Shown: in pieces, positions 10,582 through 56,163 of the stretch
How the letters are laid out: the number at the start of each line of letters is the position of its first letter
Position numbering within the stretch: position 1 is the first letter of the stretch
Assembly (NCBI GenBank): GCA_963784525.1
Contig: CAWART010000020.1
Span: 151,844 to 215,843, forward strand
Direction: 5' to 3'
DNA length: 64,000 bases
Source: Candidatus Aminicenantes bacterium
Lineage (GTDB): Bacteria > Acidobacteriota > Aminicenantia > Aminicenantales > Saccharicenantaceae
The notes under the pieces: model-generated
The model's input: the letters and a program-made list of their open reading frames with translations, nothing else
Told to the model about the DNA's origin: nothing
The model's database searches: none
Translations under genes and position numbers: made by a program

Positions 10582-12507
10582 ATGCGCCCGATCGGCCCTG
10601 CCCTGGCTCTTGGATTCGCCCTATCCTTGTTTTCCGGTCCTGCCGCGGGGGGGGGCCGCCGGGACCTCAACGTCCTCCTGATCACCATCGATACGGTGCG
10701 GGCCGACCGTCTCGGCTGCTACGGGTATGCCGGGGCCGGGACTCCCAACCTGGACCGGCTGGCCGCCGAGGGGGTCCGGTTCGCCAACACCTATGCCCAG
10801 GTGCCGTTGACCCTGCCCTCGCATTGCTCGATCATGACGGGGACCTATCCCCTCGATCACCTCGTCCGGAACAACGGAACCTACGCCCTGGGCCCCGGAC
10901 TGCCGACGCTCGCCGGACTGCTCAAAGCGCAGGGTTTCCGGACCGGGGCGTTCGTCGCGTCCTTCACCCTGGATTCCCGTTTCGGGCTCGCCCGGGGCTT
11001 CGACGTCTACGACGACGACGTCCAGGGCGGGGAGGCCCTGAAGAGCTTCCGCTCGGAGCGCAGGGGCGAGGCCGTCCTCGCCGCCCTGGCGCCCTGGCTG
11101 GAGACGAACCGCGGAGAGCGGTTCTTCGCCTGGGCCCATTTCTACGATCCCCATCTCCCCTATGCCCCTCCCCCGCCGTTCGATGCGGCCTATGGAGGGA
11201 GGAAATATGACGGCGAGATCGCCTATGTGGACCACGTCATCGGCGGGCTGATCGAGATGTTGAAGGCCGGGGGCATCCTGGACCGGACGCTCATCATCGT
11301 CGCCGGGGACCACGGCGAGGCCCTGGGAGAGAAGAAAGAGATCGATCACGGGCTTTTCCTTTACGACGGCACTCTGAAGGTCCCCTTCATCGTCCGGCTC
11401 GGAAAGGACCTGCCCGCCGGACTCGTCGTGCCCGCGCGGGTCCGTCTCATCGATATCATGCCGACCGTCCTGGACATCCTGGGGATGCGCGTACCCTCCG
11501 GGGTCCGGGGGACGTCGCTCCTGCCCTATATCCGGGGGCGGAAGAAGGCCGATCTGCCCTCCTATATCGAAACCGTCTATCCCCGGGAGAATTACGGCTG
11601 GTCGGAATTGAAGGGCCTCCTCGACGGCCCCTGGAAATATATCCTGGCTCCGACGCCTGAACTGTACGACCTGGCCCGGGACCCCCGCGAGGAGAAGGAT
11701 CTCGTTTCGGAACAGCCTGCCGTCCTGAGGGAAAAGGCCGGGAAGCTCGGCGCGTTCCTCGCCGGGTCGGGGGCGCGGAAGGACGTCCCACGAAGGACGA
11801 TGACCGCCGCCGAGGCGGAACGGCTCAGGTCGCTGGGGTATCTCGGAGGCGGGCCCGCCGGCGACGGAGCGAAAAAAGGCCTTTCCGACCCGAAGGAAAA
11901 GATCGGCGACTATCTCCTCATTTTCCGGGGGAACCTGCTGGAGAACGAAGGGAGGCTCTCCCAGGCGGCCGAATGCTACCGTCAGGTCCTCGACGCGAAT
12001 CCCGACGTGCCGTCGAACCACGTCAACCTGGCCCTGCTGGAAATGAAAAGGGGCCGGGCCGACGAGGCCGCGCGGCTCCTGGAAGCGGCGAAGGCGAAAT
12101 TTCCCGATTCGGAGCTCGTCCTGTCGCGCCTGATGGGACTCTATCTCAACGCGGCGCGGTGGCGGGACGCGCTGTCCGTCGGGCGGGCCCTGCTCGGAAA
12201 GGACCCCGCACATTTCGACGCCCTTTTCCTGTCGGGAAGCGCCCACGCGCGCCTGGAAGAGTGGGAAGAAGCCGCGACCGATTATCGGAAAGCCCTGGCG
12301 ATCGAGTCCGAGAACCCCGCGCTTCAGCGCAGATACGCCGACGCCCTTCGCGCCAACGCCGTCTCTCTCGGGAGGAAAGGGAACCTCAAGGACGCGATCC
12401 TCTGGATGAGACGGTACCTGGAGGCGGTCTCTCCGGACGAAGGGCGCGGGCGGGACGAAGCGCGGCGGCTCATCGGGGAGTGGGAGCGCGCTTCGAAGTC
12501 CCTATGA
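10582..12507 (+). CDS. alkaline-phosphatase-superfamily (sulfatase-like) hydrolase with C-terminal TPR repeats
   Basis: 641 aa with a signal peptide and the motifs LITIDTVRADRLGCYG and PLTLPSHCSIMTGTYP. The C-terminal 200 aa are TPR-like. Confidence 0.8.
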   Translation: MRPIGPALALGFALSLFSGPAAGGGRRDLNVLLITIDTVRADRLGCYGYAGAGTPNLDRLAAEGVRFANTYAQVPLTLPSHCSIMTGTYPLDHLVRNNGTYALGPGLPTLAGLLKAQGFRTGAFVASFTLDSRFGLARGFDVYDDDVQGGEALKSFRSERRGEAVLAALAPWLETNRGERFFAWAHFYDPHLPYAPPPPFDAAYGGRKYDGEIAYVDHVIGGLIEMLKAGGILDRTLIIVAGDHGEALGEKKEIDHGLFLYDGTLKVPFIVRLGKDLPAGLVVPARVRLIDIMPTVLDILGMRVPSGVRGTSLLPYIRGRKKADLPSYIETVYPRENYGWSELKGLLDGPWKYILAPTPELYDLARDPREEKDLVSEQPAVLREKAGKLGAFLAGSGARKDVPRRTMTAAEAERLRSLGYLGGGPAGDGAKKGLSDPKEKIGDYLLIFRGNLLENEGRLSQAAECYRQVLDANPDVPSNHVNLALLEMKRGRADEAARLLEAAKAKFPDSELVLSRLMGLYLNAARWRDALSVGRALLGKDPAHFDALFLSGSAHARLEEWEEAATDYRKALAIESENPALQRRYADALRANAVSLGRKGNLKDAILWMRRYLEAVSPDEGRGRDEARRLIGEWERASKSL

Positions 12508-14108
12508 TCGCGACCGCGCGTCGTGAACGACCCGTCCGCCGACGACGGTCATCATGACCCGGGCCTCCTTGATCGCTCCGGGGTCCAAGGTGAAAATATC
12601 CCTGTCCAGGACGACGAGATCGGCGGCCTTCCCCGGCTCTAGAGATCCCTTGGCGTGTTCCATGAACTCCGCGCGGGCGCCGTTGCGCGTGAAGGCCAGG
12701 AGGGCTTCCTCCAGCGGGATCCTCTGGTCCGGGTGCCAGGCCTGAGGGCTGTCGCCGTCGCCCGCGTGCCGGGTGACCGCGGCGTGGACCCCGAGCAGGG
12801 GGTCGAGCGGGGCGACCGGCCAGTCGGATCCGAAGGCCAATTTCCCGCCGCCGTCGAGAAGGGAACGGAAGGCGTAGGTCGTCCGGGCGCGGTCCTTGCC
12901 CACCCTCTTTTCGACCCAGCCGGCCTCGGCGACGGCGTGATAGGGCTGGACCGACGGAACGACCCCGAGCCCATGGATGCGCGCGATCTCCCCGGGCCTC
13001 AGATGCTGGGCGTGCTCGATGCGCCACCGGCGGTCCCGCTCCCCGTTCCGGGAGAGGACCCGGCCGAAGATGTCGAGCACGAGGGCGTTGGCCATATCGC
13101 CGATGGCGTGGATGGCCACCTGGAGCCCGGCGGCGTCGGCCTTGAGGATCCGCTCCTCCATGATGCCCTCCGGGAACATCTCGGACGAAAGGTATCCGCG
13201 CGTATCCGGGTCGTCGGCGTACGGCTCGAAGAAATAGGCGCTGTGCGAGCCCAGACCGCCGTCGGCGAACCCCTTCATCCCCGCGATCCGGACCATGGCG
13301 CCGTCGACGGGGATCCGGGCCGCGGCGTCGAAGACGTCCATTTCCGCGATCGGAAGGTAGACGGACAGCCGGGCCGTGAGCCTGCCGGCGGCGAGCAGTT
13401 CGCGATAGACCGCCACGCTCGCAGCGTCCGACATGTCATGGACGGACGTGACCCCGAGCCTTGCGGCGTGACGGAGCGCGGCGGCGGCCGCAGCCAGGTC
13501 GGCCTTGCGCGAGGGTTTCGGGATATGGCTCGTCACGAGTTCCACGGCGGCGTCCCGCAGGATCCCGGTCGGCTCGCCCGTCGCCGGGTCCTTCTGGATC
13601 TCTCCACCCTCGGGAGAGACGGTGTCCTTCGTGATCCCGGCGATCCGGAGCGCCAGGCTGTTGACCAGGACGGTGTGGAGATCGTAGCGATGCACGCAGA
13701 CGGGATTTTCTGGCGAGGCCCCGTCGATCCAGGACCTGTCGGGAAACGCGGGGGGGAGAACAGTTCGTGGTCCCAGTGTCCGTCGAGGATCCAGTCCCCC
13801 GCTTCGAGCTCGGCGGCCTTCGCCGCGACGCGTCCGGCGAACGACCCGCGGTCGGTGACGTCCCGGAGCCGGATGCGGGACAGGGCGTAGCCTCCCTTCA
13901 GGAAATGCGTGTGGCAGTCGATGAATCCCGGAAGGAGGAGGGCGCCGCCGAGGTCGACGGTCATCGTCTCCGGCGTGGCGAGCCTTTCGAGCTCGGCTTG
14001 CCGGCCGACGCGCAGGATGCGGTCCCCTTCCGTCAGGACGGCCTCGGCCCGGGGGCGCGACGGGTCGGCCGTCCAGACGGACCCGTTCCTGAACAACAGA
14101 CTATTCAT
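12502..14108 (-). pseudogene. YtcJ-like amidohydrolase (family 3), reading frame broken once
   Basis: The N-terminal part is 13533..14108 (GFIDCHTHFLKGG) and the C-terminal part is 12502..13695. The frames join inside the G7 run at 13750-13756. It is a close paralog of the next gene. Confidence 0.8.
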
Positions 14109-14145
14109 GTCCGATCCCTTTCATGGGTCTCGCGGGCCGCTCCGC

Positions 14146-15852
14146 TTAAAGGACCCCTCCCCCCGGCCGGCGGTAGACGATCTTCCCGCCGACGACCGTC
14201 ATCGTGACCTTGACGTCCTTGATCCTCTCAGGAGCGATCTTGAAGAGGTCCTGATCGAGGATCACGAGGTCGGCCATCTTGCCCGCCTCGATGGAACCCT
14301 TCTCCTTTTCCGAGAACTCGGCGAAAGCGGCGTCGAGCGTGTAGCCCCGGAGGGCTTCCTCCAGGGTCAGCTTCTGCTCCGGATACCACCCTCCCGGATT
14401 CTTCCCGTCGATCGTCGCCCGGGTGACCGCCGCGTAGATGCCCGAGAGCGGGTCGAGCGGAGCGACCATCCAATCCGAGCCGAGGGCGAGCTTTGCTCCG
14501 CCCTCGAGGAGGGATTTGAAGGCGTAGGTCGTGCGACAGCGATCCTTCCCGATCCGCTTCTCGGCCCATCGGCCGTCGTCGATGGCGTGATAGGGCTGGA
14601 CCGAGGCGACGACCCCCAGCTTTCCGAACCGGGCGATGTCCTCGGGCCGCAGGTGCTGGGCATGCTCGATCCTCCAGCGCCTGTCCCGGGGGCCGTTCAC
14701 GGCCACGGCCTTCTCGAAGATGTCCAGGATGAGGTCGTTGGCCTTGTCCCCGATGGCATGAACGGCGACCTGGATGCCGTCGCGATCGGCCCGGAGGATG
14801 CGTTCCTCCATGGTGCCTTCCGGGGTCATCTGGGGGTGGACGATGCCCGTGTTCCCGGGGTCGTCCGTGTACGGCTCGAAGAAGACGGCGGTCCGGGCGC
14901 CGAGCCCGCCGTCACAGAAGGCTTTCAGCCCGGCGATACGGAGGTATTCGTTGCCGAACGGAGAGCGCATCTTCAGGCCGTCCAGCAGGTCGATCCGCGG
15001 GATGGGGATATAGAGGTATATCCGGCTCGTCAGGTTCCCGGCCCGATAAAGGTCCTGATAGGCCTCGAAGGCCGGAGTGAATTCGTCGGGGAAGGCCATC
15101 TCATGGACCGACGTCACGCCGTGCTCGGCGGCATGGGCGAGAGCGGCCTCGATGGCCCGGATATTGTCCTTGAGCGAGGGCGGCGGGATGAGCCCCGTCA
15201 CCAGGTTCATGGCCGATTCCTTGAGGATCCCGGTCGGCTCGCCCGTCTTCGGGTCCTTGAGGATCTCCCCTCCGGCCGGGGACGGCGTGTCCTTGGTGAT
15301 GCCCGCCATCCGCAGGGCGACGCTGTTGGCCAGCCCGATGTGGAGGTCGTAGCGCCGGACGAACACGGGATTCTCGGGCGTCTCCCGGTCGATCCATTCC
15401 TTGGCGGGAAGGATCGGCGGGTCGAGCCGCTCCTCGTCCCAGGTCCCGTTGAGGATCCATGCCCCCTTGTCCATCATGGCGACCTTGGCCGTGAATCGCG
15501 CGGCGAACTCCTGCCGGCTTCGGACGTCCTTGAGCTGGATGCTCGAGAGGGCGTATCCGCCCTGAAGGAAATGGGTGTGGCAGTCTATGAATCCCGGCAG
15601 GACGAGCGCGCCGTCGAGCCGGACGACCGTCGCCCCTTCGGGAGCGATCGCGGCGAGTTCGGCATCCGAGCCGACGCGGGCGATGCGCCCCTGACTGATG
15701 AGGACGGACTCCGCCCAGGGCCGGGCCGGGTCCATGGTCCGGATCCGGCCGCCGACGAGGAGGAGGTCCCCGGAAGTCGCCGGGGAAGCGGCGGGCGTCA
15801 TCGTCGCGAGGCCGGCGAGACAGAGGAACAGGGCAAGGATCTTCGATCTCAT
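14146..15852 (-). CDS. secreted YtcJ-like amidohydrolase (family 3)
   Basis: Contains PGFIDCHTHFLQGG (HxH). Start chosen at 15852 (MRSKILALFLCLAGLA), preceded by an AGGAG RBS. Confidence 0.85.
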   Translation of the reverse strand: MRSKILALFLCLAGLATMTPAASPATSGDLLLVGGRIRTMDPARPWAESVLISQGRIARVGSDAELAAIAPEGATVVRLDGALVLPGFIDCHTHFLQGGYALSSIQLKDVRSRQEFAARFTAKVAMMDKGAWILNGTWDEERLDPPILPAKEWIDRETPENPVFVRRYDLHIGLANSVALRMAGITKDTPSPAGGEILKDPKTGEPTGILKESAMNLVTGLIPPPSLKDNIRAIEAALAHAAEHGVTSVHEMAFPDEFTPAFEAYQDLYRAGNLTSRIYLYIPIPRIDLLDGLKMRSPFGNEYLRIAGLKAFCDGGLGARTAVFFEPYTDDPGNTGIVHPQMTPEGTMEERILRADRDGIQVAVHAIGDKANDLILDIFEKAVAVNGPRDRRWRIEHAQHLRPEDIARFGKLGVVASVQPYHAIDDGRWAEKRIGKDRCRTTYAFKSLLEGGAKLALGSDWMVAPLDPLSGIYAAVTRATIDGKNPGGWYPEQKLTLEEALRGYTLDAAFAEFSEKEKGSIEAGKMADLVILDQDLFKIAPERIKDVKVTMTVVGGKIVYRRPGGGVL

Positions 15853-15866
15853 TTGTGGACTCCTAA

Positions 15867-16256
15867 TCACTTCGCGTCCCGGTCGAAATGCGGCATGTCC
15901 GCGGGGAGCTCGAGCGTCATGTCGAGATACCCCGCGAATTCCCCGTCGATCGTCCAGGGCGCCTGGAAGACCAGCTTCTTCCGGCCGTCTCTGGTATACG
16001 TATAGACGTTCGTCCGGCGGCTGTCGATCAGGGCCTTCAGCTTGAGCTTGGCTCCCTCCGGATGGCAGTCGAAGACGGAGGCCCCGATGAGGTCGGGATG
16101 GCCGCTTTCGGCGAAGCCTTTTGCGGTACGTTCCGTCATGTCGATGATGACGTCGTTCTTGTCGATGACGGTGAGCGTCACCGGGAATTCCTTCACCCAG
16201 GGATGCGGGTCGGTCGTCCCTCCCGCGGCCGGGCGGCCGGGATCAGTCGGTTTCAT
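15867..16256 (-). CDS. small PAS-like domain protein
   Basis: Real start at MKPTDPG (16256), 129 aa. The core VIDKNDVIIDMTERTAKGF...FDCHPEGAKLKL...VFQAPWTIDGEFAGYLDMTLE looks like a PAS fold. No signal peptide and no output domain. Confidence 0.6.
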   Translation of the reverse strand: MKPTDPGRPAAGGTTDPHPWVKEFPVTLTVIDKNDVIIDMTERTAKGFAESGHPDLIGASVFDCHPEGAKLKLKALIDSRRTNVYTYTRDGRKKLVFQAPWTIDGEFAGYLDMTLELPADMPHFDRDAK

Positions 16257-17526
16257 GGGGCTTTCCTTTCTGGTCGATCTCGATGACGACGCCGCCGACG
16301 ATGACCGATTCCGGTCCGGTCGCGGAGGCGAAGGGGTCCTCCGGAAAAAGGACGACATCCGCCGACATCCCCGGCTCCAGGGACCCGAGGACGTCCCCCG
16401 CTCCGAGGATCTTCGCGGCATCAGAGGTCAGGGCGCGCAGGGCGTCTTCCGGCGTCAGACCGTGGCGGACGGCGACCCGGACCGTGTCGAGCAGGTCCTC
16501 TCCGTCCATCGTCGGGCCGGTCTTGAACGCGATGGTGACGCCGGCTTTCCGGAGCCGGGCCGCGTTCTCGAAGACGGCGCCCGCCGTCTCGATCGTCCGG
16601 CGCAGGGCCGCGCTCGTTCTGAGGATCACGGGGACCTTCCGTGCGGCCAGAACGTCCGCCGCCCGGCAGGCTTCCGCCCCCTCGTCGATGACGAGACGGA
16701 CCTTGAATTCGTCGGCGATCCTGAGCGCGGTCAGGACGTCGTCGTAGCGGTTGGCCGTGAGGACGAGGGGAAGGTCGCCCTTGATCACCGGGATCAGGGC
16801 CCGGACGGCCGGGGATGCCTGCGGGAGGGGATGTTCGTCCGCGGCCTTGGCGGCGGCCCGTTTGCGCCCGGCATCGTCGAGCCGGCGCAGGTGGTTCTGC
16901 GCGTCGGACAAGGCCTGCCTGAGAAGGGCGGCCGTGCCCATCCGCGTGTACGGGTACGCGCTGTTCTGTTTGGACCTGGGCTTGAGCGCCTCTCCGAGGG
17001 TCCCGTGGACCGCGGCCGGCGAGAGGACGATCATCTTCGCGACGTCCTCCCCTTCCAGCCGGAGGAGGGCGCTCCGTCCGGACAGAACGTTCCCCCGTCC
17101 GGGGGTCACGAGGGCCGAGGTGACGCCCCGGCGCGCCGCCGCGGCGACGAACCGGTTTCCCGGATCGAACGCGTCGACGACATCCAGCTGGGGGGTCAGC
17201 GGCTGGGAGGCTTCGTCGCCGTCTCCCGCGACGCTCCCGGCCTCGACGGTCCCCAGGTCCGTCCCCGCATCGATGAATCCGGGGAGGACATATTTTCCGG
17301 TGGCGTCGATGACCCTCGAGTCGGGCGGGACCGCCAGGTCCTTCCCGACGGACAGGATCTTTCCGTCCTGGATGATGATCGTCCCGTTGGCGATCGCCCC
17401 GTGCGTTCCGGTGATGAGGGTCCCGCCCCGGATGACGATGGGACGTTCCCGCGGCCCGGCGCCGGCCGGCGAAAGGCAAAGGGCTATTCCCGCGGCAATG
17501 ATGAATCTTCCGGCCGTTCTGCCCAC
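16243..17526 (-). CDS. secreted amidohydrolase-fold protein with degenerate metal motif
   Basis: 427 aa with a signal peptide. It has PGFIDAGTDLG where the HxH motif normally sits. The C-terminus SLEPGMSADVVLF is typical of the fold. Confidence 0.8.
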   Translation of the reverse strand: MGRTAGRFIIAAGIALCLSPAGAGPRERPIVIRGGTLITGTHGAIANGTIIIQDGKILSVGKDLAVPPDSRVIDATGKYVLPGFIDAGTDLGTVEAGSVAGDGDEASQPLTPQLDVVDAFDPGNRFVAAAARRGVTSALVTPGRGNVLSGRSALLRLEGEDVAKMIVLSPAAVHGTLGEALKPRSKQNSAYPYTRMGTAALLRQALSDAQNHLRRLDDAGRKRAAAKAADEHPLPQASPAVRALIPVIKGDLPLVLTANRYDDVLTALRIADEFKVRLVIDEGAEACRAADVLAARKVPVILRTSAALRRTIETAGAVFENAARLRKAGVTIAFKTGPTMDGEDLLDTVRVAVRHGLTPEDALRALTSDAAKILGAGDVLGSLEPGMSADVVLFPEDPFASATGPESVIVGGVVIEIDQKGKPHETD

Positions 17527-17562: not shown

Positions 17563-18636
17563 TCAGAACTTGAGGCGCGCGCTCAGGTTGAGATACGTGT
17601 CCGAACCGGGCCCGGACACGTCCCCGAGTTTATCATAAAAAACATGCTTGATATTGGGAATGATCGTGATGTTGTCGGAAACTTTCCAACCGAATCCGGC
17701 GATGACGAGGTTCGAGGGGGCGCGGTCCGAGAACGGGATATAGGAGATCCCGGGACCGAGCGGGTTCGGGTCCGGCATCCGGTCGAAGCGGAGCACGACC
17801 TCGGCTCCGGCGCGGACCTTGAGGACCGCGAGGGCCGACCACAGGCGCCAACGGTCGCTCGCTTCGCCCGCCCGCGTCTCCCTCAGGGCATAGAGGAATC
17901 CGGCCCTCCCCCATCGGCCTTCATAGCCCGAGAAGACCTGAAAGAGGCGATAGGTCCGGGAATCCTTCTGCCGCTCGGTGTCGGCATAAAGGTCGAGGTG
18001 AAAGCCCTTCAGCGGCTTGACGATGAACTGGGCGTAGGCCTTCTTCCCCTTGTTGGTCTCCGCGTTGTTCCCTTCGCCGTTCCCGAACATCACCTTGTAG
18101 GAAACGGTCCCCGCGGAATTCAGGTTGCCTTTCAGGGCGACGCCAAAGTCCCTGGCCGAGCCGAACTTCTGCAGGTCGCAGGGGGTCTTTTCGAGCGCCC
18201 GATAGCCCCAGAAGGATTCGACGTTCTCCCAGGTCGGGGTCGCGATGAGGCCGACCTGGAGGTCCTGGCCCTTCAGTCGGAAATTCAGGAAGGCGTCCTT
18301 GACGAACGGAACGAGGAGCGAATTCGTTTTGAAATCCCCCGAGGAACTCATCTCCAGCTTGAAGCGGAACGACAGGCTGGAAGACAGGGCGTCGTCGAAC
18401 GTCAGGTTGATCCTCCGGAACCAGAAGCCGTTCTGCCCCGCGAGGTTCGCGTCATGCTGACGGGCGACGGAATAGAATTCCGAGAAGACCTCGCCGCTGA
18501 TCAGGATCGGAGAGCCCGCACGGGCAGGGGCGGCGAACGCGGAGAGAAGGGTCGCCGCTCCGATGAAGAGCTTCCCGATGATGGGAGCAAGGAAGGCCCG
18601 GAAGCGGCCCCGAAGGGCCCGGTTATCGTTTATCAT
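17563..18636 (-). CDS. outer-membrane beta-barrel porin
   Basis: Start at MINDNRALRG (18636) with signal peptide ...LLSAFAAPARA. Alternating beta-strand pattern and a C-terminal ...NLSARLKF (terminal Phe). Confidence 0.7.
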   Translation of the reverse strand: MINDNRALRGRFRAFLAPIIGKLFIGAATLLSAFAAPARAGSPILISGEVFSEFYSVARQHDANLAGQNGFWFRRINLTFDDALSSSLSFRFKLEMSSSGDFKTNSLLVPFVKDAFLNFRLKGQDLQVGLIATPTWENVESFWGYRALEKTPCDLQKFGSARDFGVALKGNLNSAGTVSYKVMFGNGEGNNAETNKGKKAYAQFIVKPLKGFHLDLYADTERQKDSRTYRLFQVFSGYEGRWGRAGFLYALRETRAGEASDRWRLWSALAVLKVRAGAEVVLRFDRMPDPNPLGPGISYIPFSDRAPSNLVIAGFGWKVSDNITIIPNIKHVFYDKLGDVSGPGSDTYLNLSARLKF

Positions 18637-18880
18637 CCTGTCTGCCTTTCGCAATTCGTGCCTCGCAGCGGGATCCGCATCGTCCGGTCCCCCGGTCCGG
18701 GACGGCTTCCCGCGAGAAGGCCGGAGGGCCCGCCCCTGTGCGGGCCCCCTGACCCGGCTCATAGGATCGCAGAGGGGCACGACGGAAACAGGGCCGTCGC
18801 GCCCGCCCCGCCCTTCCGGGGGGTGACGGAGGACAGGGCTTCGAATAACGTTCTTGTTGGATACAGGCAAGGGAGATATG
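18637..18880 (-). promoter_or_regulatory. long GC-rich 5' leader of the porin/amidohydrolase operon
   Basis: About 240 nt lie between the AT-rich promoter zone and the porin ATG. The in-frame N-terminal extension is R/P/G-rich and looks non-coding. Confidence 0.3.
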
Positions 18881-18887
18881 GAATTAT

Positions 18888-18920
18888 GATATTCATAATA
18901 TTATTACGATATTAATAATA
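18888..18920. repeat. two 13-nt direct repeats GATATT(C/A)ATAATA spaced 20 nt apart, in an AT-rich divergent promoter zone
   Basis: gatattcataata at 18888-18900 and gatattaataata at 18908-18920. Confidence 0.45.
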
Positions 18921-19090
18921 CTGAAGCGGCAACCTGATTGTCAAGTCCAACGTAAAGAGCCGCGTCCCTTTTTCGAGGCCCGCGCCGTCCCGCGCCCGCT
19001 CCGAACGGCCGGGCGGTTCACGATGCCGTCGTCCTCGTCGCGGGGCTTTACTTTTCGGGACGGCCTTCGTATGATGGGCAGAACGCCGCC

Positions 19091-20522
19091 ATGGAAGACG
19101 CCAACGGTCCCCGCCTCCTCCGGAGGATGAATCTCCTCGATGCCACGTCGCTCGTCATCGGTGCCGTCATAGGGTCCGGGATCTTTCTGACGACGGGCTT
19201 CATCCTTCAGGAGCTCCCCTCCCCGGGTCTGATGCTCCTCGTCTGGATCGCCGGAGGGCTCGTCGCGGTCAGCGGTGCCCTGACGTTCGGAGAGCTCGGG
19301 GCGATGTACCCGCGCGCCGGGGGCCAGTACGTTTATATCCGTGAGGCCTACGGGCCCTGGGCCGGGTTCTTCTACGGCTGGGGTTTCTTCTGGTTCATCA
19401 TGTGCGGCGGGATCGCGGCCCTGGCCGTGGCCTTCGCCGAGTTCGTCGGCTACTTCGTCCCGGCCCTGTCCACGCAGAACGCCCTCTTCGGCTTCCGGAT
19501 GTTCGGGCACGCGTTCGCGCTCTCCGCGGGACAGCTCATCGCGGCCGCGGCCATCGTGCTCCTGACCTGGATGAACTCCTTCGGCATCCAGGCCGGGAAA
19601 ACGGACCCAGAACGTCCTGACGTTCTTCCGCGTCGGGGCCGTCCTGTTCCTCGTCGTCTTCGGACTCCTCTCGGGGAACAAGGCGGGGATCACCGGGTTC
19701 GGGGACCTGTTTCCCGCCGGCGGGGGCGGCCTCGGGGACGTCCTGAAGCATTTCGGACTGGCCCTCATCGCGGTCTTCTGGACCTTCGACGGCTGGTACT
19801 CCGTGAGCTGTACGGCCGAGGAGATCCGGAAGCCGGAGCGGAACATCCCGCTCAGCCTCCTCCTCGGGACCGTGAGCGTCACGGTCATCTATGTCCTCGT
19901 CAACGTCGTCTATATCCTCGCCCTGCCGGTCGAACGGATGACGGGCGTCGCCCGCGTCGGCGAGCTCGCCGCCACCCAGCTCTTCGGCCCCTCGGTCACC
20001 TTCTGGGTCTCGGCGGCGATCATGATCTCCATCTTCGGGTGTCTCAACGCCACGATCATTTACGGCCCGCGCGTCTTCTATGCCATGGCCGCCGACGGCG
20101 CGTTCTTCCGGAGCATGGCTTACGTCCATCCGCGCCGGCGGGTCCCGACCGTGGCCCTCTGGGGCCAGGCCCTGTGGTCGGTGATCCTCTGCCTTTCGGG
20201 CACCTACCAGGGGCTCTACGAATATGTCATTTTCGCCGTGCTCCTGTTCTTCGCGGGAACGGGATATGCCCTCATCGTCCTCCGGCGCAAGCGGCCGGAC
20301 GTCCCGAGGCCCTATCGGGCTTGGGGATATCCCTTCGTGACCCTGGCGTTCGTGGGCATCTGCCTGGTCATCTTCCTGAACACCGTCGTCTCCCAGCCCG
20401 GCAAGACCCTCGTCGGGTTCATCATCCTGGCCGCGGGCGTCCCGGCCTACCTGCGCTGGAACAAAAGGAACGCGGCCGCCGAAAAAAGGATTCCCGAGCC
20501 CGGCCCAAATGAATTAAAATAG
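19091..20522 (+). pseudogene. APC-family amino acid permease, one frameshift
   Basis: The N-terminal frame (19091) reads ...NSFGIQAGK. The C-terminal frame (as in 19803..20522) resumes at QNVLTFFRVGAVLFLVVFG. The junction is about 19598-19607. Confidence 0.85.
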
Positions 20523-20539
20523 GGCTTTCGGGAGACACG

Positions 20540-22303
20540 ATGCCCAGGAGATTCACGGTCAAGGTCCTTGCCCCGCGCGCGGAAGGCACCGCTTCGCGCG
20601 GCGATCTCCTGTCCGACGTCCTTCGGGCGGCGGGGATCCCGATGAGCCTCTATTGCGGGGGACGCGGGCTCTGCGGCAAGTGTCTCGTCCATGTCGCGCG
20701 CGGCGAGGTCTCCCCTGCCGGGGAGCAGGAGATCGCGTTCCTCCGTGGAAGAAAACCCGGACCCGGGTTCCGCCTGGCCTGCCTGACGCGGGTTCTCGGG
20801 GATATCGCCGTCACGGTTCCCGGATCGTCCCTTCTCAAGGACGTGGCGGTCCTGGACACCGGCCTCGAAGCCCCGTTCCGTCCCGATCCGGCCGTCCGCA
20901 AGCTTTCTTTCGAGGTTCCCGCGACGTACCTGTCCGATCCGGTGTCGGCCGTGGAGGCCCTCGAAAGGAAGCTCGGGAAACGCCTGCGCTATTCGGCCGG
21001 GGCGGCGGCCGGCGCGTCGGCCGGGATCGGCCGTGATGGCGGCCGCGTCTCCGTGACCGTCCTCGACGGCGACGAGCTCCTGGATGTCGAACCCGGGAAC
21101 GCCGCGACCCGCTGTTTCGGCGTCGCGGTCGATATCGGTACGAGCACGATCGTGGTCGAGCTCATCGACCTGGTTTCCGGAAGGAGGCTGGGGCGGGCGG
21201 CCGCCGTCAACGCCCAGACCGCCTTCGGCGCCGACGTCGTCTCAAGGATCACGTACGCCGGTGAGGCCGCGGGGAACCTCGAGCGGCTTGCCGATGTGCT
21301 GCGCCGGCAGATCGACGGACTGATCGCCGGCCTCGCCCGCGAACACGGCGTTGGCCCCGGGCATATCTACGAGATCGTTGCCGCCGGAAACACGGCCATG
21401 AACCATATCTTCGCCGGCGTCCCCGTGACGACGCTCGCCGCCGCCCCCTATGGCGCCGCGTTCGCGAAAGGGCCGTCGGTCGGAGCGGCGGACCTCGGGC
21501 TTTCGGTCCACCCCCGCTGCCGGGTCCACCTCGCGCCCAACCTCAAGAGCTTTGTCGGGGGGGATATCGCGGCCGGCATCTCGGCCTTGGACCTGGCGGC
21601 CCGGCCCGGCAACGTCCTGTTCATCGATCTGGGGACCAACGGCGAGATCGTCCTGAAGAAAGGGACGCGGACGACGGCGACATCGACCGCCGCGGGCCCG
21701 GCTTTCGAGGGCATGACCATCGGCTGCGGGATGCTGGCCGTACCCGGAGCCGTGTGCGCCGTCCGTTGGCGGAACGGTCCGGCGGTCCGGACGATCGGCG
21801 GGGCCCCGGCCCGCGGCGTGTGCGGCACGGGGCTCATCGACATCCTCGCCGTCGGGCTCCGGCACGGCCTTGTCTCCGCGGACGGAAGGATCCAGGCCGC
21901 TTCGCGTTCGATCCCGGTGGCCTCCGGCATCTCCCTGACCCAGCGGGACATCCGGAATCTTCAGCTGGCCGTCGCGGCCATCAGGACGGGCGTCCGGCTG
22001 ATGCTCGCGGACGCCGGGATCACGGTCGCCGACCTCGACCGGCTCTTTGTCGCCGGCGCGTTCGGCGCCTCCCTCGACGTCCGGAACGCCATGTCCATCG
22101 GGCTCCTCCCCTCGATGGCCGCGTCCCGTATCGCGTTCGTCGGCAATGCGTCGCTGGCGGGCGCGCGGAAGCTCCTCCTGTCGCTTCCCGAGCGGAGGAA
22201 GATCGAAGCGTTCGCCCGGAAGGTCAGGCACGTGTCCCTGGCCTCCTGCCCGGGCTTCCAAAAGGAATTCATCAGGGCCTTGAAACTGGAACCCTATAAG
22301 TGA
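20540..22303 (+). CDS. RACo-type reductive activase of corrinoid proteins (2Fe-2S ferredoxin + ASKHA ATPase)
   Basis: 587 aa. N-terminal YCGGRGLCGKC...RLAC (C-x5-C-x2-C...C) followed by DIGTSTIVVE and DLGTNGEIV phosphate-binding motifs. Confidence 0.8.
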   Translation: MPRRFTVKVLAPRAEGTASRGDLLSDVLRAAGIPMSLYCGGRGLCGKCLVHVARGEVSPAGEQEIAFLRGRKPGPGFRLACLTRVLGDIAVTVPGSSLLKDVAVLDTGLEAPFRPDPAVRKLSFEVPATYLSDPVSAVEALERKLGKRLRYSAGAAAGASAGIGRDGGRVSVTVLDGDELLDVEPGNAATRCFGVAVDIGTSTIVVELIDLVSGRRLGRAAAVNAQTAFGADVVSRITYAGEAAGNLERLADVLRRQIDGLIAGLAREHGVGPGHIYEIVAAGNTAMNHIFAGVPVTTLAAAPYGAAFAKGPSVGAADLGLSVHPRCRVHLAPNLKSFVGGDIAAGISALDLAARPGNVLFIDLGTNGEIVLKKGTRTTATSTAAGPAFEGMTIGCGMLAVPGAVCAVRWRNGPAVRTIGGAPARGVCGTGLIDILAVGLRHGLVSADGRIQAASRSIPVASGISLTQRDIRNLQLAVAAIRTGVRLMLADAGITVADLDRLFVAGAFGASLDVRNAMSIGLLPSMAASRIAFVGNASLAGARKLLLSLPERRKIEAFARKVRHVSLASCPGFQKEFIRALKLEPYK

Positions 22304-22311
22304 GGACCGAT

Positions 22312-23208
22312 ATGAGCCGAACCATTCTCGATCTCGTCAAAGAGCGACCCGTCCTCCTCGACGGCGGCCTGGGCACGGAGCTCATCCGCCGCGGCCTGCC
22401 GCAGGGGGCGTGCCCCGAGTCCTGGAACGTGGAGCGGCCGGAGGCCGTCCGGTCCGTCCACGCGGGCTATTTCGAGGCCGGAGCCGACGCCGTGTCGACC
22501 AACAGTTTCGGCGGGAGCCGCATCAAGCTCGCCGCCCATGGTCTCGGGGCCCGGGCCGCGGAGCTCAACCTCGCGGCGGCCCGTGTCGCCCGGGAGGCCG
22601 CCCCGGCGGGCGGTTTCGTGGCCGGAAGCATCGGGCCGACGGGCAAGTTCCTCAAGCCCCAGGGCGAATTCACGGAAGCCGAGTTCGAAGAGGCCTTCGC
22701 CGAACAGGCCGGGGCGCTCGCCCTCGGCGGGGTCGATCTCCTGATCGTCGAAACGCAATACGACCTTCGGGAAGCCCTGGCGGCGTTGCGGGCGGCCCGG
22801 TCCGCGGCCCCCTCCCTGCCCGTATTCGTCACCCTGACCTTCAATGCCTACCCCCGCGGGTACTTCACGCTCATGGGGAACAGCGTGACCGCCGCCGTCG
22901 AAGCCCTGGAAAAGGTAGGGGTCTCGGCCGTCGGCGCCAATTGTACGCTGGACAGCCGGGAGATGGTCGGGCTGGTGCGGGCCTTCCGGCAGGCGACGCG
23001 CCTCCCGGTCGTCGCCCAGGCCAATGCGGGGAAGCCCGCCCTCGAAGCCGACGGCGGGGTCTCCTATTCCCAGAGCCTTGAAGAGTACGTCGGGTTCATC
23101 CCGGCCATCCTCGAGGCCGGGGCGAACGTCATCGGCGGCTGTTGCGGGACCGGCCCCGACCATATCAGGAAGATGTCGGAACTCGTCCATAGAAGCAAGA
23201 TCGGCTAA
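22312..23208 (+). CDS. stand-alone homocysteine S-methyltransferase domain protein (MetH N-terminal-module-like)
   Basis: Contains LLDGGLGTEL, GANCT and GGCCGTGPDHI (Zn-thiolate Cys triad). ATG at 22312 is preceded by GAGGA. Confidence 0.85.
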   Translation: MSRTILDLVKERPVLLDGGLGTELIRRGLPQGACPESWNVERPEAVRSVHAGYFEAGADAVSTNSFGGSRIKLAAHGLGARAAELNLAAARVAREAAPAGGFVAGSIGPTGKFLKPQGEFTEAEFEEAFAEQAGALALGGVDLLIVETQYDLREALAALRAARSAAPSLPVFVTLTFNAYPRGYFTLMGNSVTAAVEALEKVGVSAVGANCTLDSREMVGLVRAFRQATRLPVVAQANAGKPALEADGGVSYSQSLEEYVGFIPAILEAGANVIGGCCGTGPDHIRKMSELVHRSKIG

Positions 23209-23219
23209 AGGAGAGAAGC

Positions 23220-23870
23220 ATGAAAAAGGAAGAATTGTATCGGAGCATCCAAAAGGCCATCGTCGACGGCGACAGGCCTGCGGCCCGGGAGCTGGCCCTC
23301 GAGTCCGTGCGCCTGGGGCTGGACCTCAACGAGGTCATCGATCAGGGTTACGTCCCCGGCATCCAGGAGGTCGGCGAGCTGTGGGAGAAGGGCGAATATT
23401 TCCTGCCCGAGCTCATCACCAGCGCCGAGTGCATGAAGGCGGCCATGGACGTTCTCCAGCCGGAGATGGCCAAGACTCAGGTCAAATCGCGTTCGCTGGG
23501 CAAGGTCGTGATCGGGACCGTCGAGGGAGACATCCACGACATCGGGAAGAACCTGGTGGCCTCGATGCTCCAGGCCAACGGATTCGAGGTCTTCGATCTC
23601 GGCGCCGACGTCAAGCTCGAGCGCTTCATCGAGAAGGCCCGGGCCGAAGGGGCGGACCTCATCTGCCTCTCGGCCCTTCTGACGACGACCATGCTCAACC
23701 AGAAGCGGTTCCTCGAGCTCCTGGGGAAGCAGGGGCTCTCCGGGAAGTACAAGGTCCTCGTGGGCGGGGCCCCCGCCACGCGGAAGTGGGCCGAGGACAT
23801 CGGGGCCCAGGGATACGCCGAGAACGCCGCCGCGGCCGTCAAAGTGGCCAAGGCGCTGATGGGGAGATGA
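23220..23870 (+). CDS. corrinoid (cobalamin-binding) protein
   Basis: 216 aa with a B12-binding_2 cap followed by GDIHDIGKN (DxHxxG), SALLTTT and VLVGGAP. Confidence 0.9.
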   Translation: MKKEELYRSIQKAIVDGDRPAARELALESVRLGLDLNEVIDQGYVPGIQEVGELWEKGEYFLPELITSAECMKAAMDVLQPEMAKTQVKSRSLGKVVIGTVEGDIHDIGKNLVASMLQANGFEVFDLGADVKLERFIEKARAEGADLICLSALLTTTMLNQKRFLELLGKQGLSGKYKVLVGGAPATRKWAEDIGAQGYAENAAAAVKVAKALMGR

Positions 23871-25338
23871 CCATGATCGCCACGACCCGACCGAAGCTCC
23901 AGCTCCTGAGCCCGGAATTCATCGCGAAGATCGTCGACGAGGCCTACCAGCTCCTCGAGAAGCAGGGCCTCTTCGTCGAGAACCCGGAGGCCCTGGACCT
24001 GCTCGCCGCCGCGGGACAGAAGGTCGACGCCGCCTCCGCGCGCGCCCATCTCGGCCGGCGGCTCATCGAGGACTGCCTGGCGACGACGCCCGAGGTCGTC
24101 CGGATGTACGATCGCACGGGGACGAAGGAATACGTCGTCGGCGGCGACGAGGTCCACTTCGATCCCGGCTCCGCCGCCGTGTCCATGCTCGATCATGCCA
24201 CGGGGTCCGAGCGGAAGGCCGTGACCGGGGACCTCGTCCGGCTTTACGACCTCGTCGAAACCCTCGGGAACCTGGACTTCCAGAGCACCGCCCTCGTCAG
24301 CTCGGACGTCCCCCTCCCGGTCGCCGACGCCTACCGGCTCTACCTCGGGCTCCTGCGCTCGTCCAAGCCCTTCGTCACCGGGCTGTTCCGCGTCGAATCC
24401 TTCAAGCCCATGCGCGACATGCTCGTCGCGGTCCGGGGAAGCGCCGCGGAACTCGCGGCCAAGCCGCTGGCCATATTCGACGCCTGCCCTTCCCCTCCCC
24501 TCAAGTGGAGCCATCTGACCACCCAGAGCCTCATCGACGCGGCGCGGGCCGGCATTCCGAGCGAGACCATCTCCATGAGCCTCACCGGGGCCACTTCGCT
24601 CGTGACCCTCGCCGGGACGCCCTCGTCCAGCACGTCGCCGAGAGCCTGGGCGGCGTCGTCATCTGCCAGCTGGCCAAGAAGGGCGCGCCGGTCATCTTCG
24701 GCGGCTCCCCGGCGAGCTTCGACATGCGCAAGGGGACGACGCCGATGGGGGCGATCGAGACGATGATGATCGACTCCGCCTATGCCCAGATCGCCAAGTC
24801 GCTCCGGCTCCCCTCGCACGCCTACATGGGCCTTTCCGACTCCAAGGTCAACGACGCCCAGGCCGGTCTCGAGTCCGGGATCGGGGCGGTCCTGGCCGCC
24901 CTGTCCGGGATCAACGTCATCTCCGGGCCGGGCATGCTCGACTTCGAGAGCAGTCAGAGCCTGGAGAAGCTCGTCATCGACGACGAGATCTGCGGCATGG
25001 CCAAGAGGCTCGTCCGCGGCATCGAGCAGAGGGACGAGATCCTCGCCCTCGACAAGTTCGAGGCCATCGCGGCGGGCGCGCCGTTCCTGTCCCTGCCCCA
25101 CACGCGTCAATGGTACCGGAAGGAGCACAGCTTCCCGGGGATCATCGACCGGGACACCTACGAAGCCTGGGTCGCCCTCGGCCGGAAGGATATGGACCAG
25201 CGGGCGGCCGACGATGTCGCGCGCAGGCTCGGGGCGGGCCCTTCGGGCCTCCTGGATCCCAAAAAGGCCGGCGACCTCAAGAAGATCATGGAAGGCTACG
25301 CCTCGGCGAACGGGGCCTCGTCCCTCCCCGGGATCTGA
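23867..25338 (+). pseudogene. MttB-superfamily (non-pyrrolysine) methyltransferase, one frameshift
   Basis: MTMIATTRPKLQLLSPEFIAKIVDEAY... runs to ...TGATSLVTLAG, then ALVQHVAESLGGVVICQLAKKGAPVIFGG continues in the frame of 24505..25338. The junction is at GGG 24614-16. No in-frame TAG. Alternative start at 23873. Confidence 0.85.
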
Positions 25339-25383
25339 CGGTGAGGGTTTCGAGGCTCCACCGGGCGCGCCCGGGAGGGTGAC

Positions 25384-26007
25384 GTGCCCCGTCCGCTGGA
25401 AACGCCGCACCTCCTCCCGGTGGTCTTCGAGGAGAGAAAGGTGCTCTTTCGCCTCGGCTACCGGAAGCCGTCCGCCGGCGTGAGCGCCGACGTCCGGGCC
25501 CTTGTCGGAGAGGAGACCGAACGGGCCCGGTCGCTCGTCAGTCCGGGCGTCGCCGCCGCCCTCCTGGAAAAGGCCGAGCTCCCCGACCACCCGATATTCC
25601 GCGGCGCCGAAAGGGCCGGCCTGTGTGTTTGTACGATCGGCCCGGATCTCGAAGCCGCCGCGGCGCGATTGATGAGGGAGGGGGAACTGCTTCGCGGCCT
25701 CGTTCTGGATTGGCTGGGGTCCGAAGCGGTCACGAACATCTCCCGGCAGGCAGAAGCCTGGCTGGCCGGGGAAGGCCGGGCCGATGGGCTTTGGCCGAGC
25801 CGGATGTTCGCTCCGGGCGATAAGGGCTGGGACATTTCCGGCCAGGAGTTCATCTTCGCGTCCGTGCCGGCGTCGACGATCGGCGTGAGCTTGTCCGGAT
25901 CCTTCATGATGACGCCGCGGAAGTCCTTCTCGTTCCGGGTCAATTACAGCAAGGACAGGAAGCCGTCGACCCGGAAGGGAAGCCGGGGCGAGTGCGGGAG
26001 CGGGTGA
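25384..26007 (+). CDS. MetH activation-domain-like protein (vitamin-B12-dependent methionine synthase activation region)
   Basis: 207 aa with a GTG start. Contains GLCVCTIGPDLE...LRGLVLDWLGSEAV...APGDKGWDISGQ, resembling the reactivation module. Confidence 0.6.
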   Translation: MPRPLETPHLLPVVFEERKVLFRLGYRKPSAGVSADVRALVGEETERARSLVSPGVAAALLEKAELPDHPIFRGAERAGLCVCTIGPDLEAAAARLMREGELLRGLVLDWLGSEAVTNISRQAEAWLAGEGRADGLWPSRMFAPGDKGWDISGQEFIFASVPASTIGVSLSGSFMMTPRKSFSFRVNYSKDRKPSTRKGSRGECGSG

Positions 26008-31015: not shown

Positions 31016-31117
31016 GGTCTCATGGTAGCGGGTTCTCCGGCCTTTGACAAGAACGCTGTTCGGGAAGCGCGCCGGCGCGGGCCCCGGGCGGTAGTCTGGT
31101 GACCGGGACCTTCGCTA

Positions 31118-31126
31118 TGGTACAAT
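31118..31126 (+). promoter_or_regulatory. extended -10 (TGgTACAAT) 6 nt upstream of the glgA ATG
   Basis: tggtacaat at 31118-31126 and the ATG at 31133. There is no SD, which implies a leaderless transcript. Confidence 0.3.
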
Positions 31127-31132
31127 CCGGCC

Positions 31133-32635
31133 ATGATGAAGATCGCTCTGTTCGTCTCCGAAGCCGTTCCCTTCGCCAAGACGGGCGGGCTGGCCGACGT
31201 CGCCGGCGCCCTCCCCAAGTACCTGGCCCGTCACGGCGCCGACGTCCGGCTCTTCATGCCCTTCTATCGGGAGGTCCGGAAAAAGGGGCTTCCCCTGATA
31301 AAGGTCCTGGACGGTGCCCGGATCTCCATCGGCGGCCGCGACCTGCCCTTCTCGCTCTGGGAGCACGGAGCCGACGGCTTCCGGGCCTACTTCGTGGAGA
31401 ACGACGAGGCCTTCGACAGGGACGCCCTCTATGGGACGCCGAGCGGCGATTATCCCGATAACGGGGAACGGTTCGGCTTCTTCGCCAGGGCCGCGCTGGA
31501 GACCTTGAAGCGGCTCGGGTTCGCGCCCGACATCCTCCACGGCCATGATTGGCAGAGCGCCGCGGCCCTGGCCTTGTTGAAACATCGTTACGCGGCCGAT
31601 CCGTTCTTCGCCGGGAACGAGGTCTCTCTTCACGATCCACAACCTCGCCTATCAGGGGCTTTTCGATAAAGGCCATCCTCAAGGCCCTGGACCTTCCGGA
31701 TTCCCTCTTCAACATGAACGACCTCGAGTTCTACGGCAAGGTGAACTTCCTCAAGGCGGGCATCCTTTATGCCACCGCCGTCAGCACCGTGAGCCCCCGG
31801 TACGCCCGGGAGATCCAGACGCCGGAGTTCGGCTGCGGGTTGGACGGGCTTGCTCCGGAGCCGGGCCGGGGTGCTCCACGGCATCATGAACGGGGTCGAC
31901 TACGCCTCCTGGAACCCGGCCGGGGACACGCTCATCCCGGCCCCGTTCTCGGCGGCCGATCTCTCCGGGAAAGCGGCTTGCCGCGAAGGGCTCCTGAGGA
32001 CCTTCGGCCTCGCGGCCGGTCCGGACGTCCCGGTCATCGGAATGGTCTCCCGGCTCGCCGGGCAAAAAGGCCTGGACATCGTCGGCGAGGCCCTTCCGGA
32101 GCTCTTCGCCCTCGACCTCAGGCTCGTCATCCTCGGCACGGGCGACGCCGTGATCCAGGACCGGCTGATCAAGGCGCAGAAAGCCTATCCAGCGCAGCTC
32201 GGGCTCAGGATCGCCTTCGACGAAAAGGTGGCGAGGACCATCTATGCGGGAAGCGATCTCTTCCTCATCCCGTCCCGCTACGAGCCGTGCGGCCTGACCC
32301 AGATGTACAGCCTGCGCTACGGGACCATCCCCGTCGTCCGGGCCACGGGCGGGCTGGACGACAGCATCGAGGCGTTCGATCCGTCGCGCGGACGGGCAAC
32401 GGCTTCAAGTTCAGCGGACGCGACGCCCGAGGCCATGCTCGGCTCCGTCCGGGAAGCGATGGGCGTGTTCCGGGACCGGTCCTCCCGGTCCGCCCTAATC
32501 CGGAACGCCATGGCCGGCGATTTCTCCTGGGACAAGGCTGCCGGCGAATACCTGAAGCTTTATGCGGCGATCGCCGAACGGCTCAGGACGATCGTCTTAG
32601 ATATCCCGCCGCCGTCTCCGGGGGCACGGGGTTGA
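31133..32635 (+). pseudogene. glgA: glycogen synthase GlgA, five indels
   Basis: [65 protein letters not shown] and TGNGFKFS are recovered only by switching frames near 31620, 31671, 31849, 32390 and 32416. Confidence 0.85.
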
Positions 32636-50341: not shown

Positions 50342-50350
50342 GGCGTTCCC

Positions 50351-56154: not shown

Positions 56155-56163
56155 AGATCCGGC

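Follow-up and report, generated by a model that had tools for sequence, protein, structure and literature searches.

A conserved Aminicenantes operon encoding a candidate corrinoid-dependent methyl-transfer chain to methionine

Results

A six-gene operon occupies positions 19091-26007 of a 64,000-nucleotide stretch of the 227-kb contig CAWART010000020.1 (assembly GCA_963784525.1) from a Candidatus Aminicenantes bacterium, the whole of which we refer to as the window. In order, the genes encode an amino-acid permease, a RACo-type activase (RACo), a stand-alone homocysteine S-methyltransferase (HcyMT), a corrinoid protein, a homologue of the methyltransferase MttB and a homologue of the activation domain of the methionine synthase MetH (Table 1). 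As described in the first-pass annotation of this DNA, the six are co-directional and closely packed; all lie on the plus strand, and their open reading frames (ORFs) are spaced by 17, 8, 11, -4 (an ATGA overlap) and 45 nt. The 8-nt junction between RACo and HcyMT becomes a 4-nt GTGA overlap if HcyMT starts at the alternative GTG.

Table 1. Features of the operon and of the region directly upstream (MT1, methyltransferase 1; MT2, methyltransferase 2)
Feature	Position	Strand	Evidence
Upstream divergent intergenic region, AT-richer	18871..19090	+	promoter-like sites
APC-superfamily (LAT-like) amino-acid permease	19091..20522	+	PF13520 (AA_permease_2) 2e-61, one base removed
RACo-type ATP-dependent reductive activase (N-terminal 2Fe-2S ferredoxin + ASKHA)	20540..22303	+	four Pfam domains above cutoffs
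Stand-alone MetH-type homocysteine S-methyltransferase, putative methylcorrinoid:homocysteine MT2	22312..23208 (alternative GTG start 22300)	+	PF02574 (S-methyl_trans) 7.6e-72
Corrinoid (B12-binding) protein, MttC/MtbC/MtgC type, cap domain + DxHxxG	23220..23870	+	PF02607 + PF02310
Non-pyrrolysine MttB-superfamily methyltransferase, putative methyl-donor:corrinoid MT1	23867..25338	+	PF06253 4.5e-80 after frame repair
TM0269-like stand-alone homologue of MetH activation domain, accessory, motif degenerate	25384..26007	+	family profile vs 1J6R 3.4e-8

The closest match of HcyMT in the PDB is the Thermus-type MetH 8G3H (180 bits), with 161 bits to Thermotoga maritima MetH, compared with 71 to BHMT and 74 to an MmuM-type structure. 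Among NCBIfam models, the one for MmuM is matched at 128 bits (cutoff 215), and the second-best match of HcyMT is to the alphaproteobacterial 'BHMT' family, PRK07534 (215 bits), which by its name is probably the family of the Sinorhizobium meliloti 'Bhmt' that was re-read as MtgE by Mausz et al. (PMC12478193). When 14 homologues were aligned, Cys211, Cys277 and Cys278 proved invariant, and D17-G18-G19 and E147 invariant or nearly so, with G19 at 90% or more. The cysteines align with the NC and GGCCGT motifs of 8G3H, which in MetH hold the zinc ligands. The Zn-thiolate signature reported for this ORF at first pass is therefore borne out, the triad being intact. HcyMT is MetH-like, not BHMT- or MmuM-like, with the putative function of transferring a methyl group from a methyl-corrinoid protein.

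A partner of this kind is encoded directly downstream. The corrinoid protein matches B12-binding_2 (PF02607) at 8.5e-22 and B12-binding (PF02310) at 3.4e-28, and the DxHxxG motif that had been noted in it is present as GDIHDIG. It exceeds the cutoff of TIGR02370 (222.8 bits against 215.3) and reaches 223.7 bits, under the cutoff, with the MtgC model, versus 148.7 bits with the MetH model, and is of the methylamine type, not the MetH type. Upstream of HcyMT, RACo carries Fer2 (8e-10), RACo_linker, Raco_middle (3.6e-50) and RACo_C_ter (1.1e-68), and its 2Fe-2S motif reads C39-x5-C45-x2-C48, in agreement with the fusion of a 2Fe-2S domain to an ASKHA ATPase proposed earlier. The best NCBIfam model of RACo is AcsV, at 369 bits and under its cutoff.

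After repair of its reading frame, the MttB homologue matches PF06253 over residues 4-473 and scores 366 bits against TIGR02369, under the equivalog cutoff of 525. The codon equivalent to Pyl334 of MttB is CTT (Leu; 24832-24834), which aligns with the pyrrolysine (Pyl, X) of 7XCL and with the Leu of MtgB 2QNE, and the protein is, as had been claimed, an MttB-family member without an in-frame TAG. A motif scan of related loci found Leu at this site in 28 matches, Met in one and TAG in none. Scores are 191 bits to Methanosarcina barkeri MttB (7XCL), 188 to Desulfitobacterium hafniense MtgB (2QNE), 188 to the glycine betaine methyltransferase 9YCE and 129 to 4YYC, a 'putative trimethylamine methyltransferase' that is presumably from S. 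meliloti. The MttB proteins of this cluster make up an orthologous group of their own, sharing 62-91% identity with that of the window, against 25-31% for the other MttB paralogues in these loci.

The last ORF encodes 207 aa, in a family of about 200 aa. That it resembles the MetH reactivation module, as proposed at first pass, is seen at the level of the family but not in its own sequence. A profile of nine orthologues matches PDB 1J6R, which we take to be the stand-alone MetH reactivation protein TM0269 of T. maritima, at 3.4e-8, and eight of the nine match Met_synt_B12 (PF02965; best 2.5e-7). The window copy does not match PF02965 even at E<=10, nor any family on its own sequence, and a single-sequence AlphaFold2 model was unusable (mean pLDDT 33). 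The AdoMet-binding motif of the MetH activation domain is RxxxGY; at the corresponding site the window reads RMFAPGD, two related loci (loci are numbered with the prefix L) read KMFAPGN (L010) and KRFTPGT (L001), and more distant orthologues read KRFAPGY. This ORF is present in only about 10 clusters. Of the ATP-dependent and SAM-type repair modules noted at first pass, RACo is upheld, and the SAM-type module is an accessory with a degenerate motif in this copy.

The core of the arrangement recurs in related genomes. Relatives of HcyMT were collected by scanning one genome per species, which gave 338, and the labels of the best 80 were examined. Most of these 80 are labelled Candidatus Aminicenantes (or Aminicenantales, Aminicenantia or Aminicenantaceae). 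About 30 are titled 'uncultured Eubacteriales', for example L008, L009 and L013 ('binchicken' third-party annotation (TPA) metagenome-assembled genomes (MAGs)), and these titles are probably mislabels; a few others are labelled Acidobacteria, Acidobacteriota, Candidatus Desulfaltia (L036) or 'Bacterium'. The closest locus is L007, whose HcyMT is 87% identical to ours and whose DNA aligns collinearly with that of the window, at about 83-86% identity.

Gene context was compared over 83 non-duplicate species-level loci, using tblastn with the six window proteins and clustering of the neighbouring ORFs (Table 2). The core RACo-HcyMT-CORR-MttB, in which CORR denotes the corrinoid-protein gene, is found in the same order and with short or overlapping junctions in about 40 of the 83, with permease and mttB intact there, and the adjacency of HcyMT and MttB that the first-pass annotation had proposed to check in relatives is therefore conserved. 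Since it is conserved in about 40 species-level genomes, the arrangement is far beyond chance. Large contigs of closer relatives that bear the cluster include CAVZBY010000011.1, CAVQXL010000004.1 and JBFOMX010000002.1. Sixty-two loci extend at least 3.2 kb downstream of HcyMT, and in these the corrinoid and MttB genes are directly adjacent in 28 and present anywhere in the locus in 33. The contexts track the clades of a neighbour-joining tree of HcyMT, and clustering of the neighbouring ORFs revealed no further methyltransferase family with a conserved place close to the operon core. Linkage of HcyMT to MttB is not obligatory, because loci with the permease only and solitary HcyMT loci exist.

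Table 2. Gene contexts of HcyMT among the 83 loci (ACS, acetyl-CoA synthase; CoFeSP, corrinoid iron-sulphur protein)
Context	Loci
permease-RACo-HcyMT-CORR-MttB	18 (19 with L007, which also has the activation ORF)
RACo-HcyMT-CORR-MttB, activation ORF present or not	about 8
ACS-CooC-AcsD-AcsC(CoFeSP)-RACo-HcyMT-CORR-MttB	about 8
ACS/CoFeSP-RACo-HcyMT only	6
HcyMT-Pterin_bind	6
permease-HcyMT only	7
HcyMT alone	17

In other clades HcyMT orthologues adjoin ACS/CoFeSP-RACo or a pterin-binding protein, and these alternative neighbours fit HcyMT as a generic methylcorrinoid:homocysteine unloader. HcyMT directly follows AcsB - CooC-like - AcsD - AcsC (CoFeSP) - RACo in L022 (2432-10885), L028 (2703-10882) and L047 (2541-10885), and the same context is seen in L015, L032, L033, L036, L041 and L054. 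OY969586.1, a complete chromosome of another Aminicenantes clade, has ACS-RACo-HcyMT and, about 5 kb further downstream, the corrinoid and MttB genes. At that position of an ACS cluster AcsE would normally be expected, and no pterin-binding gene lies within the ACS-context loci. The arrangement suggests that these clades make methionine directly from methyl-CoFeSP, a PF02574 parallel to the mesB-acsCD operons. We found no description of this arrangement.

The first-pass annotation had found no pterin-binding module in the window, and this was upheld in three ways. Among the ORFs likely to be coding, none had a Pfam match to Pterin_bind (PF00809), the last 3.4 kb, with CinA-, LigT-, PlsY- and GpsA-like ORFs, being judged by eye from the ORF list; the Aminicenantes pterin module, used as a hidden Markov model (HMM) in a six-frame search, matched neither the window nor the cluster-bearing loci; and pterin and methylenetetrahydrofolate reductase (MTHFR) proteins of Aminicenantes had no tblastn match anywhere in the window. 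MTHFR is absent from the window and from all loci searched. Nor is a pterin-binding MT2 conserved beside the operon in relatives, none lying within 10 kb of the roughly 40 related clusters.

Searches with the pterin protein of L050 and with an HcyMT-MTHFR fusion showed that both are widespread in Aminicenantes and usually adjacent to one another, the former as a protein of 263-269 aa and the latter of about 610 aa (L087:8001-10623, L094:5001-7799, L096:3036-5807). No B12-binding gene lies beside this pair. Two assemblies carry both the cluster and, on another contig, the pair: CAZGJS01 (permease-RACo-HcyMT-CORR-MttB in L031, the pair in L094) and DATKXS01 (ACS-RACo-HcyMT-CORR-MttB in L036, the pair in L087). 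The pterin protein has its best score, 178 bits, with 4O0Q, a D. hafniense chain that we take to be an O-demethylase MT2; MeTr/AcsE follows at 158 bits, and the protein is predicted to be of the methyl-tetrahydrofolate:corrinoid-protein methyltransferase type. Because two cluster-bearing assemblies encode it on other contigs, the folate module is kept in trans, and the replacement by MttB proposed at first pass is not supported; by phylogenetic bracketing the genome of the window probably also encodes it elsewhere. Together the pair looks like a methionine synthase set that borrows its corrinoid protein from elsewhere, and since it comes without a B12 carrier, the corrinoid protein of the operon, or CoFeSP in the ACS clades, is the obvious shared carrier.

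The positions of these modules differ between genomes. L050 (7764-15028) has the order SerA - NifS-like - HcyMT - Pterin_bind - DUF4416 - AsnS - RimO; the window at 52694-60225 has NifS-like - DUF4416 - AsnS - RimO without the HcyMT - Pterin_bind pair in between, and at the equivalent site L022 retains Pterin_bind without HcyMT (L090). Within this class, the Hcy and pterin modules have evidently changed position.

The permease, 476 aa after removal of one nucleotide, scores 226 bits against the LAT-type model TIGR00911, under the model cutoff, and 38 bits against MmuP. It had been read as a hint of an amino-acid-like methylated substrate, which is weakened by its pairing with HcyMT where MttB is absent. 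There are 7 loci in which it directly precedes HcyMT, and in at least 5 of them the several kb that follow contain neither MttB, corrinoid protein nor RACo. The permease is therefore poor evidence for the donor, and its substrate may relate to homocysteine, methionine or S-methylmethionine rather than to the donor of MttB. Loci with the permease-HcyMT pair and none of these three genes nearby are L016, L030, L055, L058, L059 and L065 (e.g. L059:8565-10891), and a DUF169 protein is encoded directly after the pair in L059 and about 3 kb downstream in L030; the pairing recalls mmuP-mmuM of E. coli. In L015 (11641-17238) a class I/II aminotransferase, the APC permease and a second MttB-family gene follow the cluster MttB, so that the permease stands between two MttB paralogues which fall into the same ORF cluster, a hint that the methylated substrate of that lineage is amino-acid-like.

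In the window the frames of the permease and of mttB are both broken. The permease carries an additional A at 19601, in the run 19598-19601, relative to three intact relatives, and mttB an additional two nucleotides at 24617-24618, readable as expansion of a C-run relative to L010 and L003. The L007 permease is intact and 90% identical to ours at the protein level, and MttB is 91% identical to its L007 counterpart apart from the indel. At least 10 further breaks lie outside the operon in housekeeping genes: three in GlgA, one in a NifS-like gene, two in the Asn/Asp-tRNA synthetase, at least three in RimO and one in the C-terminus of a DUF362 protein. DUF4416 and the CinA/PlsY/GpsA region are also frame-affected, and the broken regions span 31103-32635, 50276-51541, 54981-56351, 56173-56695, 57362-58742, 58742-60225 and 60593-64000. 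Several of the breaks are unpaired single-base indels in comparison with L007. The breaks probably stem from an error-prone assembly with long reads behind it, and ORF calls throughout the window need care; the two within the operon match the background error rate of the assembly and therefore give no sign of decay of the locus.

Promoter-like matches within the operon stretch are confined to the upstream intergenic region (Table 1), where sigma-70-like sites, as consensus matches only, lie at 18892-18919 and 19047-19075, and no convincing internal terminator was found within the operon. A search for cobalamin and SAM riboswitches with Rfam was negative for the window (at gathering score), for 18600-20700 (at E<=1) and for seven related loci. 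The sole match of that search was PYLIS_3, the pyrrolysine insertion sequence of mttB, within mttB of L010 (12519-12618; 38.8 bits against a gathering score of 38). It begins a few bases from the Leu codon that replaces Pyl and is probably residual coding-sequence similarity to true mttB rather than a functional element. The operon is flanked by a divergent porin-like gene upstream and a convergent beta-CASP RNase gene downstream. The former encodes a porin-like outer-membrane protein (17563-18870), and beyond it three tandem Amidohydro_3/Amidohydro_1 genes (12502-17526) also lie on the strand opposite to the operon, an arrangement kept in L001 and L007 with no obvious tie to the operon. Exact-sequence look-ups of the window HcyMT and of the corrinoid protein matched no record.

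Discussion

We propose that the operon could encode a self-contained corrinoid methyl-transfer chain that converts homocysteine to methionine with an N-methylated donor, a reading that we favour over the others and hold to be about as likely as not. Each step of this model is taken from the family membership of the proteins. The non-Pyl MttB would accept the methyl group of a methylated amine, probably a quaternary one, and pass it to Co(I) of the adjacent corrinoid protein, after which the MetH-type Zn-thiolate module, HcyMT, would move it from methyl-Co(III) to homocysteine. Cobalamin that has fallen into the inactive Co(II) state would be re-reduced by RACo, using ATP and the 2Fe-2S cluster, with the TM0269-like protein as an optional helper in reactivation. 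Rather than replacing the folate route, the operon would most likely be one input branch of a methionine synthase that is cobalamin-dependent, split and modular. A corrinoid hub shared between branches is likely, its probability being no lower than that of strict folate independence. The earlier claim that a methylated amine and homocysteine are turned into methionine here accordingly survives in part; the set of MT1, corrinoid protein, thiol-type MT2 and activase is complete, and a replacement of the folate module is not supported.

Several of our observations weigh against this chain. Some orthologues of HcyMT are solitary or accompanied by the permease only, no corrinoid gene lying within 10 kb of them, and in the window two of the six genes, the permease and mttB, are frame-broken, and the RxxxGY motif is not kept in the last ORF. 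The MttB homologue is equidistant from enzymes specific for trimethylamine and for glycine betaine. Finally, with the pterin module in trans, methyl flux could run mainly to tetrahydrofolate.

The alternative that survives best takes up this last point, and we consider it possible, if on the whole unlikely. It holds that the operon serves catabolism in the manner of MtgBCDE: MttB loads the corrinoid protein, the methyl group passes mainly to tetrahydrofolate through a MeTr-like enzyme encoded elsewhere, and from there it is oxidised or used for acetyl-CoA, HcyMT being a housekeeping module fed by methyl-tetrahydrofolate that adjoins the cell's only MetH-style B12 carrier. Consistent with such a scheme, the assemblies CAZGJS01 and DATKXS01 encode Pterin_bind and HcyMT-MTHFR in trans and no B12 domain with them, 4O0Q and MeTr/AcsE are the nearest matches of the pterin protein, and some clades have ACS/CoFeSP directly 5' of RACo-HcyMT-CORR-MttB. 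Characterised catabolic systems such as MtgBCA, however, encode their pterin MT2 together with MT1 and the corrinoid protein, and in our loci the cluster always contains the Hcy module and never has the pterin module in it or close by. Genetics in Ruegeria speaks for this alternative: both glycine betaine catabolism, in which the MttB-family MtgB carries out the demethylation, and methionine synthesis with the PF02574 module MtgE require the corrinoid protein MtgC as well as the pterin protein MtgD, work in which the S. meliloti 'Bhmt' was also reinterpreted as MtgE (Mausz et al. 2025, PNAS, PMC12478193).

A second alternative, which we judge improbable, divides the operon into two unrelated functions, a corrinoid-free pair of permease and HcyMT that imports S-methylmethionine or a similar compound as MmuP and MmuM do, and a separate methylamine system of CORR, MttB and RACo with its MT2 elsewhere. 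E. coli mmuP-mmuM does pair an APC permease with a PF02574 enzyme, and the permease-HcyMT pairs described above, most of them in loci with no corrinoid protein, MttB or RACo over several kb downstream, are in keeping with it. Against this, HcyMT resembles MetH far more than MmuM-type enzymes in its scores and falls short of the MmuM cutoff, the permease resembles LAT-type transporters and not MmuP, and in about 40 genomes RACo lies directly 5' and the corrinoid gene directly 3' of HcyMT, often with overlapping stop and start codons.

That the locus is a decaying remnant, with permease and mttB pseudogenised and no function left in this organism, is very improbable and was rejected, in spite of the two breaks and the degenerate RxxxGY motif, since breaks pervade the same 64 kb, essential genes included, both frames are otherwise open and the relatives are intact; the concern over a dead locus raised at first pass was not borne out. 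Methionine demethylation by the same chain in reverse, with HcyMT as the loader, was likewise rejected, there being no plausible acceptor module and the characterised members of the MttB family being loaders.

Returning to the methyl-transfer chain, its closest counterparts show the locus to be a new and uncharacterised representative of a type of system known from the literature. The same cluster was reported in Candidatus Electryoneota and 'diverse bacteria' by Williams et al. 2022 (Environ Microbiol, PMC9324843), who hypothesised a novel corrinoid-dependent methionine synthesis with an unidentified methyl donor, so the novelty implied by the first-pass annotation was overstated. The same four protein families stand together in the Electryoneota cluster. 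The Aminicenantes cluster adds the RACo activase and often the APC permease, with the activation-domain protein in a minority only, and whereas Electryoneota MAGs also encode a full-length MetH (PMC9324843), the Aminicenantes relatives instead have the split pterin-binding protein and HcyMT-MTHFR.

The MtgBCDE systems of Ruegeria pomeroyi, Phaeobacter inhibens and S. meliloti (PMC12478193) likewise place an MttB-family enzyme and a PF02574 module on one corrinoid protein, have a RamA/RACo-type activase and link quaternary-amine demethylation to methionine synthesis. They differ in that the pterin-binding MtgD is essential, and co-located in S. meliloti, whereas none is present in the Aminicenantes cluster or the window, and in that Ruegeria MtgC is CmuA-like and the Aminicenantes corrinoid protein of MttC/MtgC type. 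The window MttB is also further from 4YYC (129 bits) than from MttB and D. hafniense MtgB (about 190 bits). Their reactivation partner DUF1638 (PF07796) had no match in window-wide Pfam scans. The organisms named are aerobes, whereas Aminicenantes are generally regarded as anaerobes.

Two further comparisons concern the way the modules are divided. Split or truncated MetH systems, such as TM0268 with TM0269 in T. maritima and the MetH of P. inhibens, which comes in three parts and needs a RamA-like DUF4445 activase (Price et al. 2018, PMC5764234), share with the operon a stand-alone MetH-type Hcy module, B12-binding and activation-domain proteins encoded separately from it and a DUF4445/RACo activase; the donor module in cis in Aminicenantes is an MttB homologue, not a pterin-binding domain. 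The quaternary-amine systems of anaerobes (MtgB/MtgC/MtgA and MtcB, MtpB, MtyB and MthB with MtqC/MtqA) likewise use a non-Pyl MT1, an MttC-like corrinoid protein and RamA/RACo, and our MttB has Leu at the Pyl position as does MtgB, but their MT2 is pterin-binding and delivers the methyl group to tetrahydrofolate, whereas the MT2 in cis here is a Zn-thiolate PF02574 protein. The logic of bypassing folate is that of the MetE-like MesA, MesB and MesC, for which a corrinoid protein is the direct methyl donor to homocysteine (Price et al. 2021, PMC7857596). The mesB-acsCD operons are the counterpart there of the ACS/CoFeSP-RACo-HcyMT clusters in Aminicenantes, while the fold is unrelated, PF01717 and MetE-like in the former and PF02574 and MetH-like in the latter.

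The importance of the locus is lowered by the prior publication of the cluster and of the hypothesis, by the retention of the folate module in relatives and by an MttB that points to no particular donor. New to this work are the distribution in Aminicenantes, an operon that includes RACo and the permease, a pterin module that is missing in cis but encoded in trans, and the clade-wise swapping of donor modules. The latter allows for a broader and rather doubtful proposal, in which one PF02574 module serves as a universal unloader of methyl-corrinoids that may be plugged into a MeTr-like pterin module, ACS/CoFeSP, or a non-Pyl MttB with its own corrinoid protein, so that in the clade of the window the methyl group of methionine would come directly from a methylated amine, bypassing folate. 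If true, this would be the MetH-fold counterpart of the MetE-like 'core' folate-independent synthases. The clade-wise exchange of donors, whether pterin-binding protein, CoFeSP/ACS or MttB, around one Hcy module is also a natural experiment on the assembly of B12 methyltransferases. Aminicenantes are common in anoxic sediments, and if the chain works as read they would remethylate homocysteine directly from methylated amines, which would tie osmolyte and methylamine turnover to the supply of methionine and SAM and to the demand for cobalamin, and would extend the shared corrinoid hub shown genetically in marine Roseobacters beyond the Proteobacteria.

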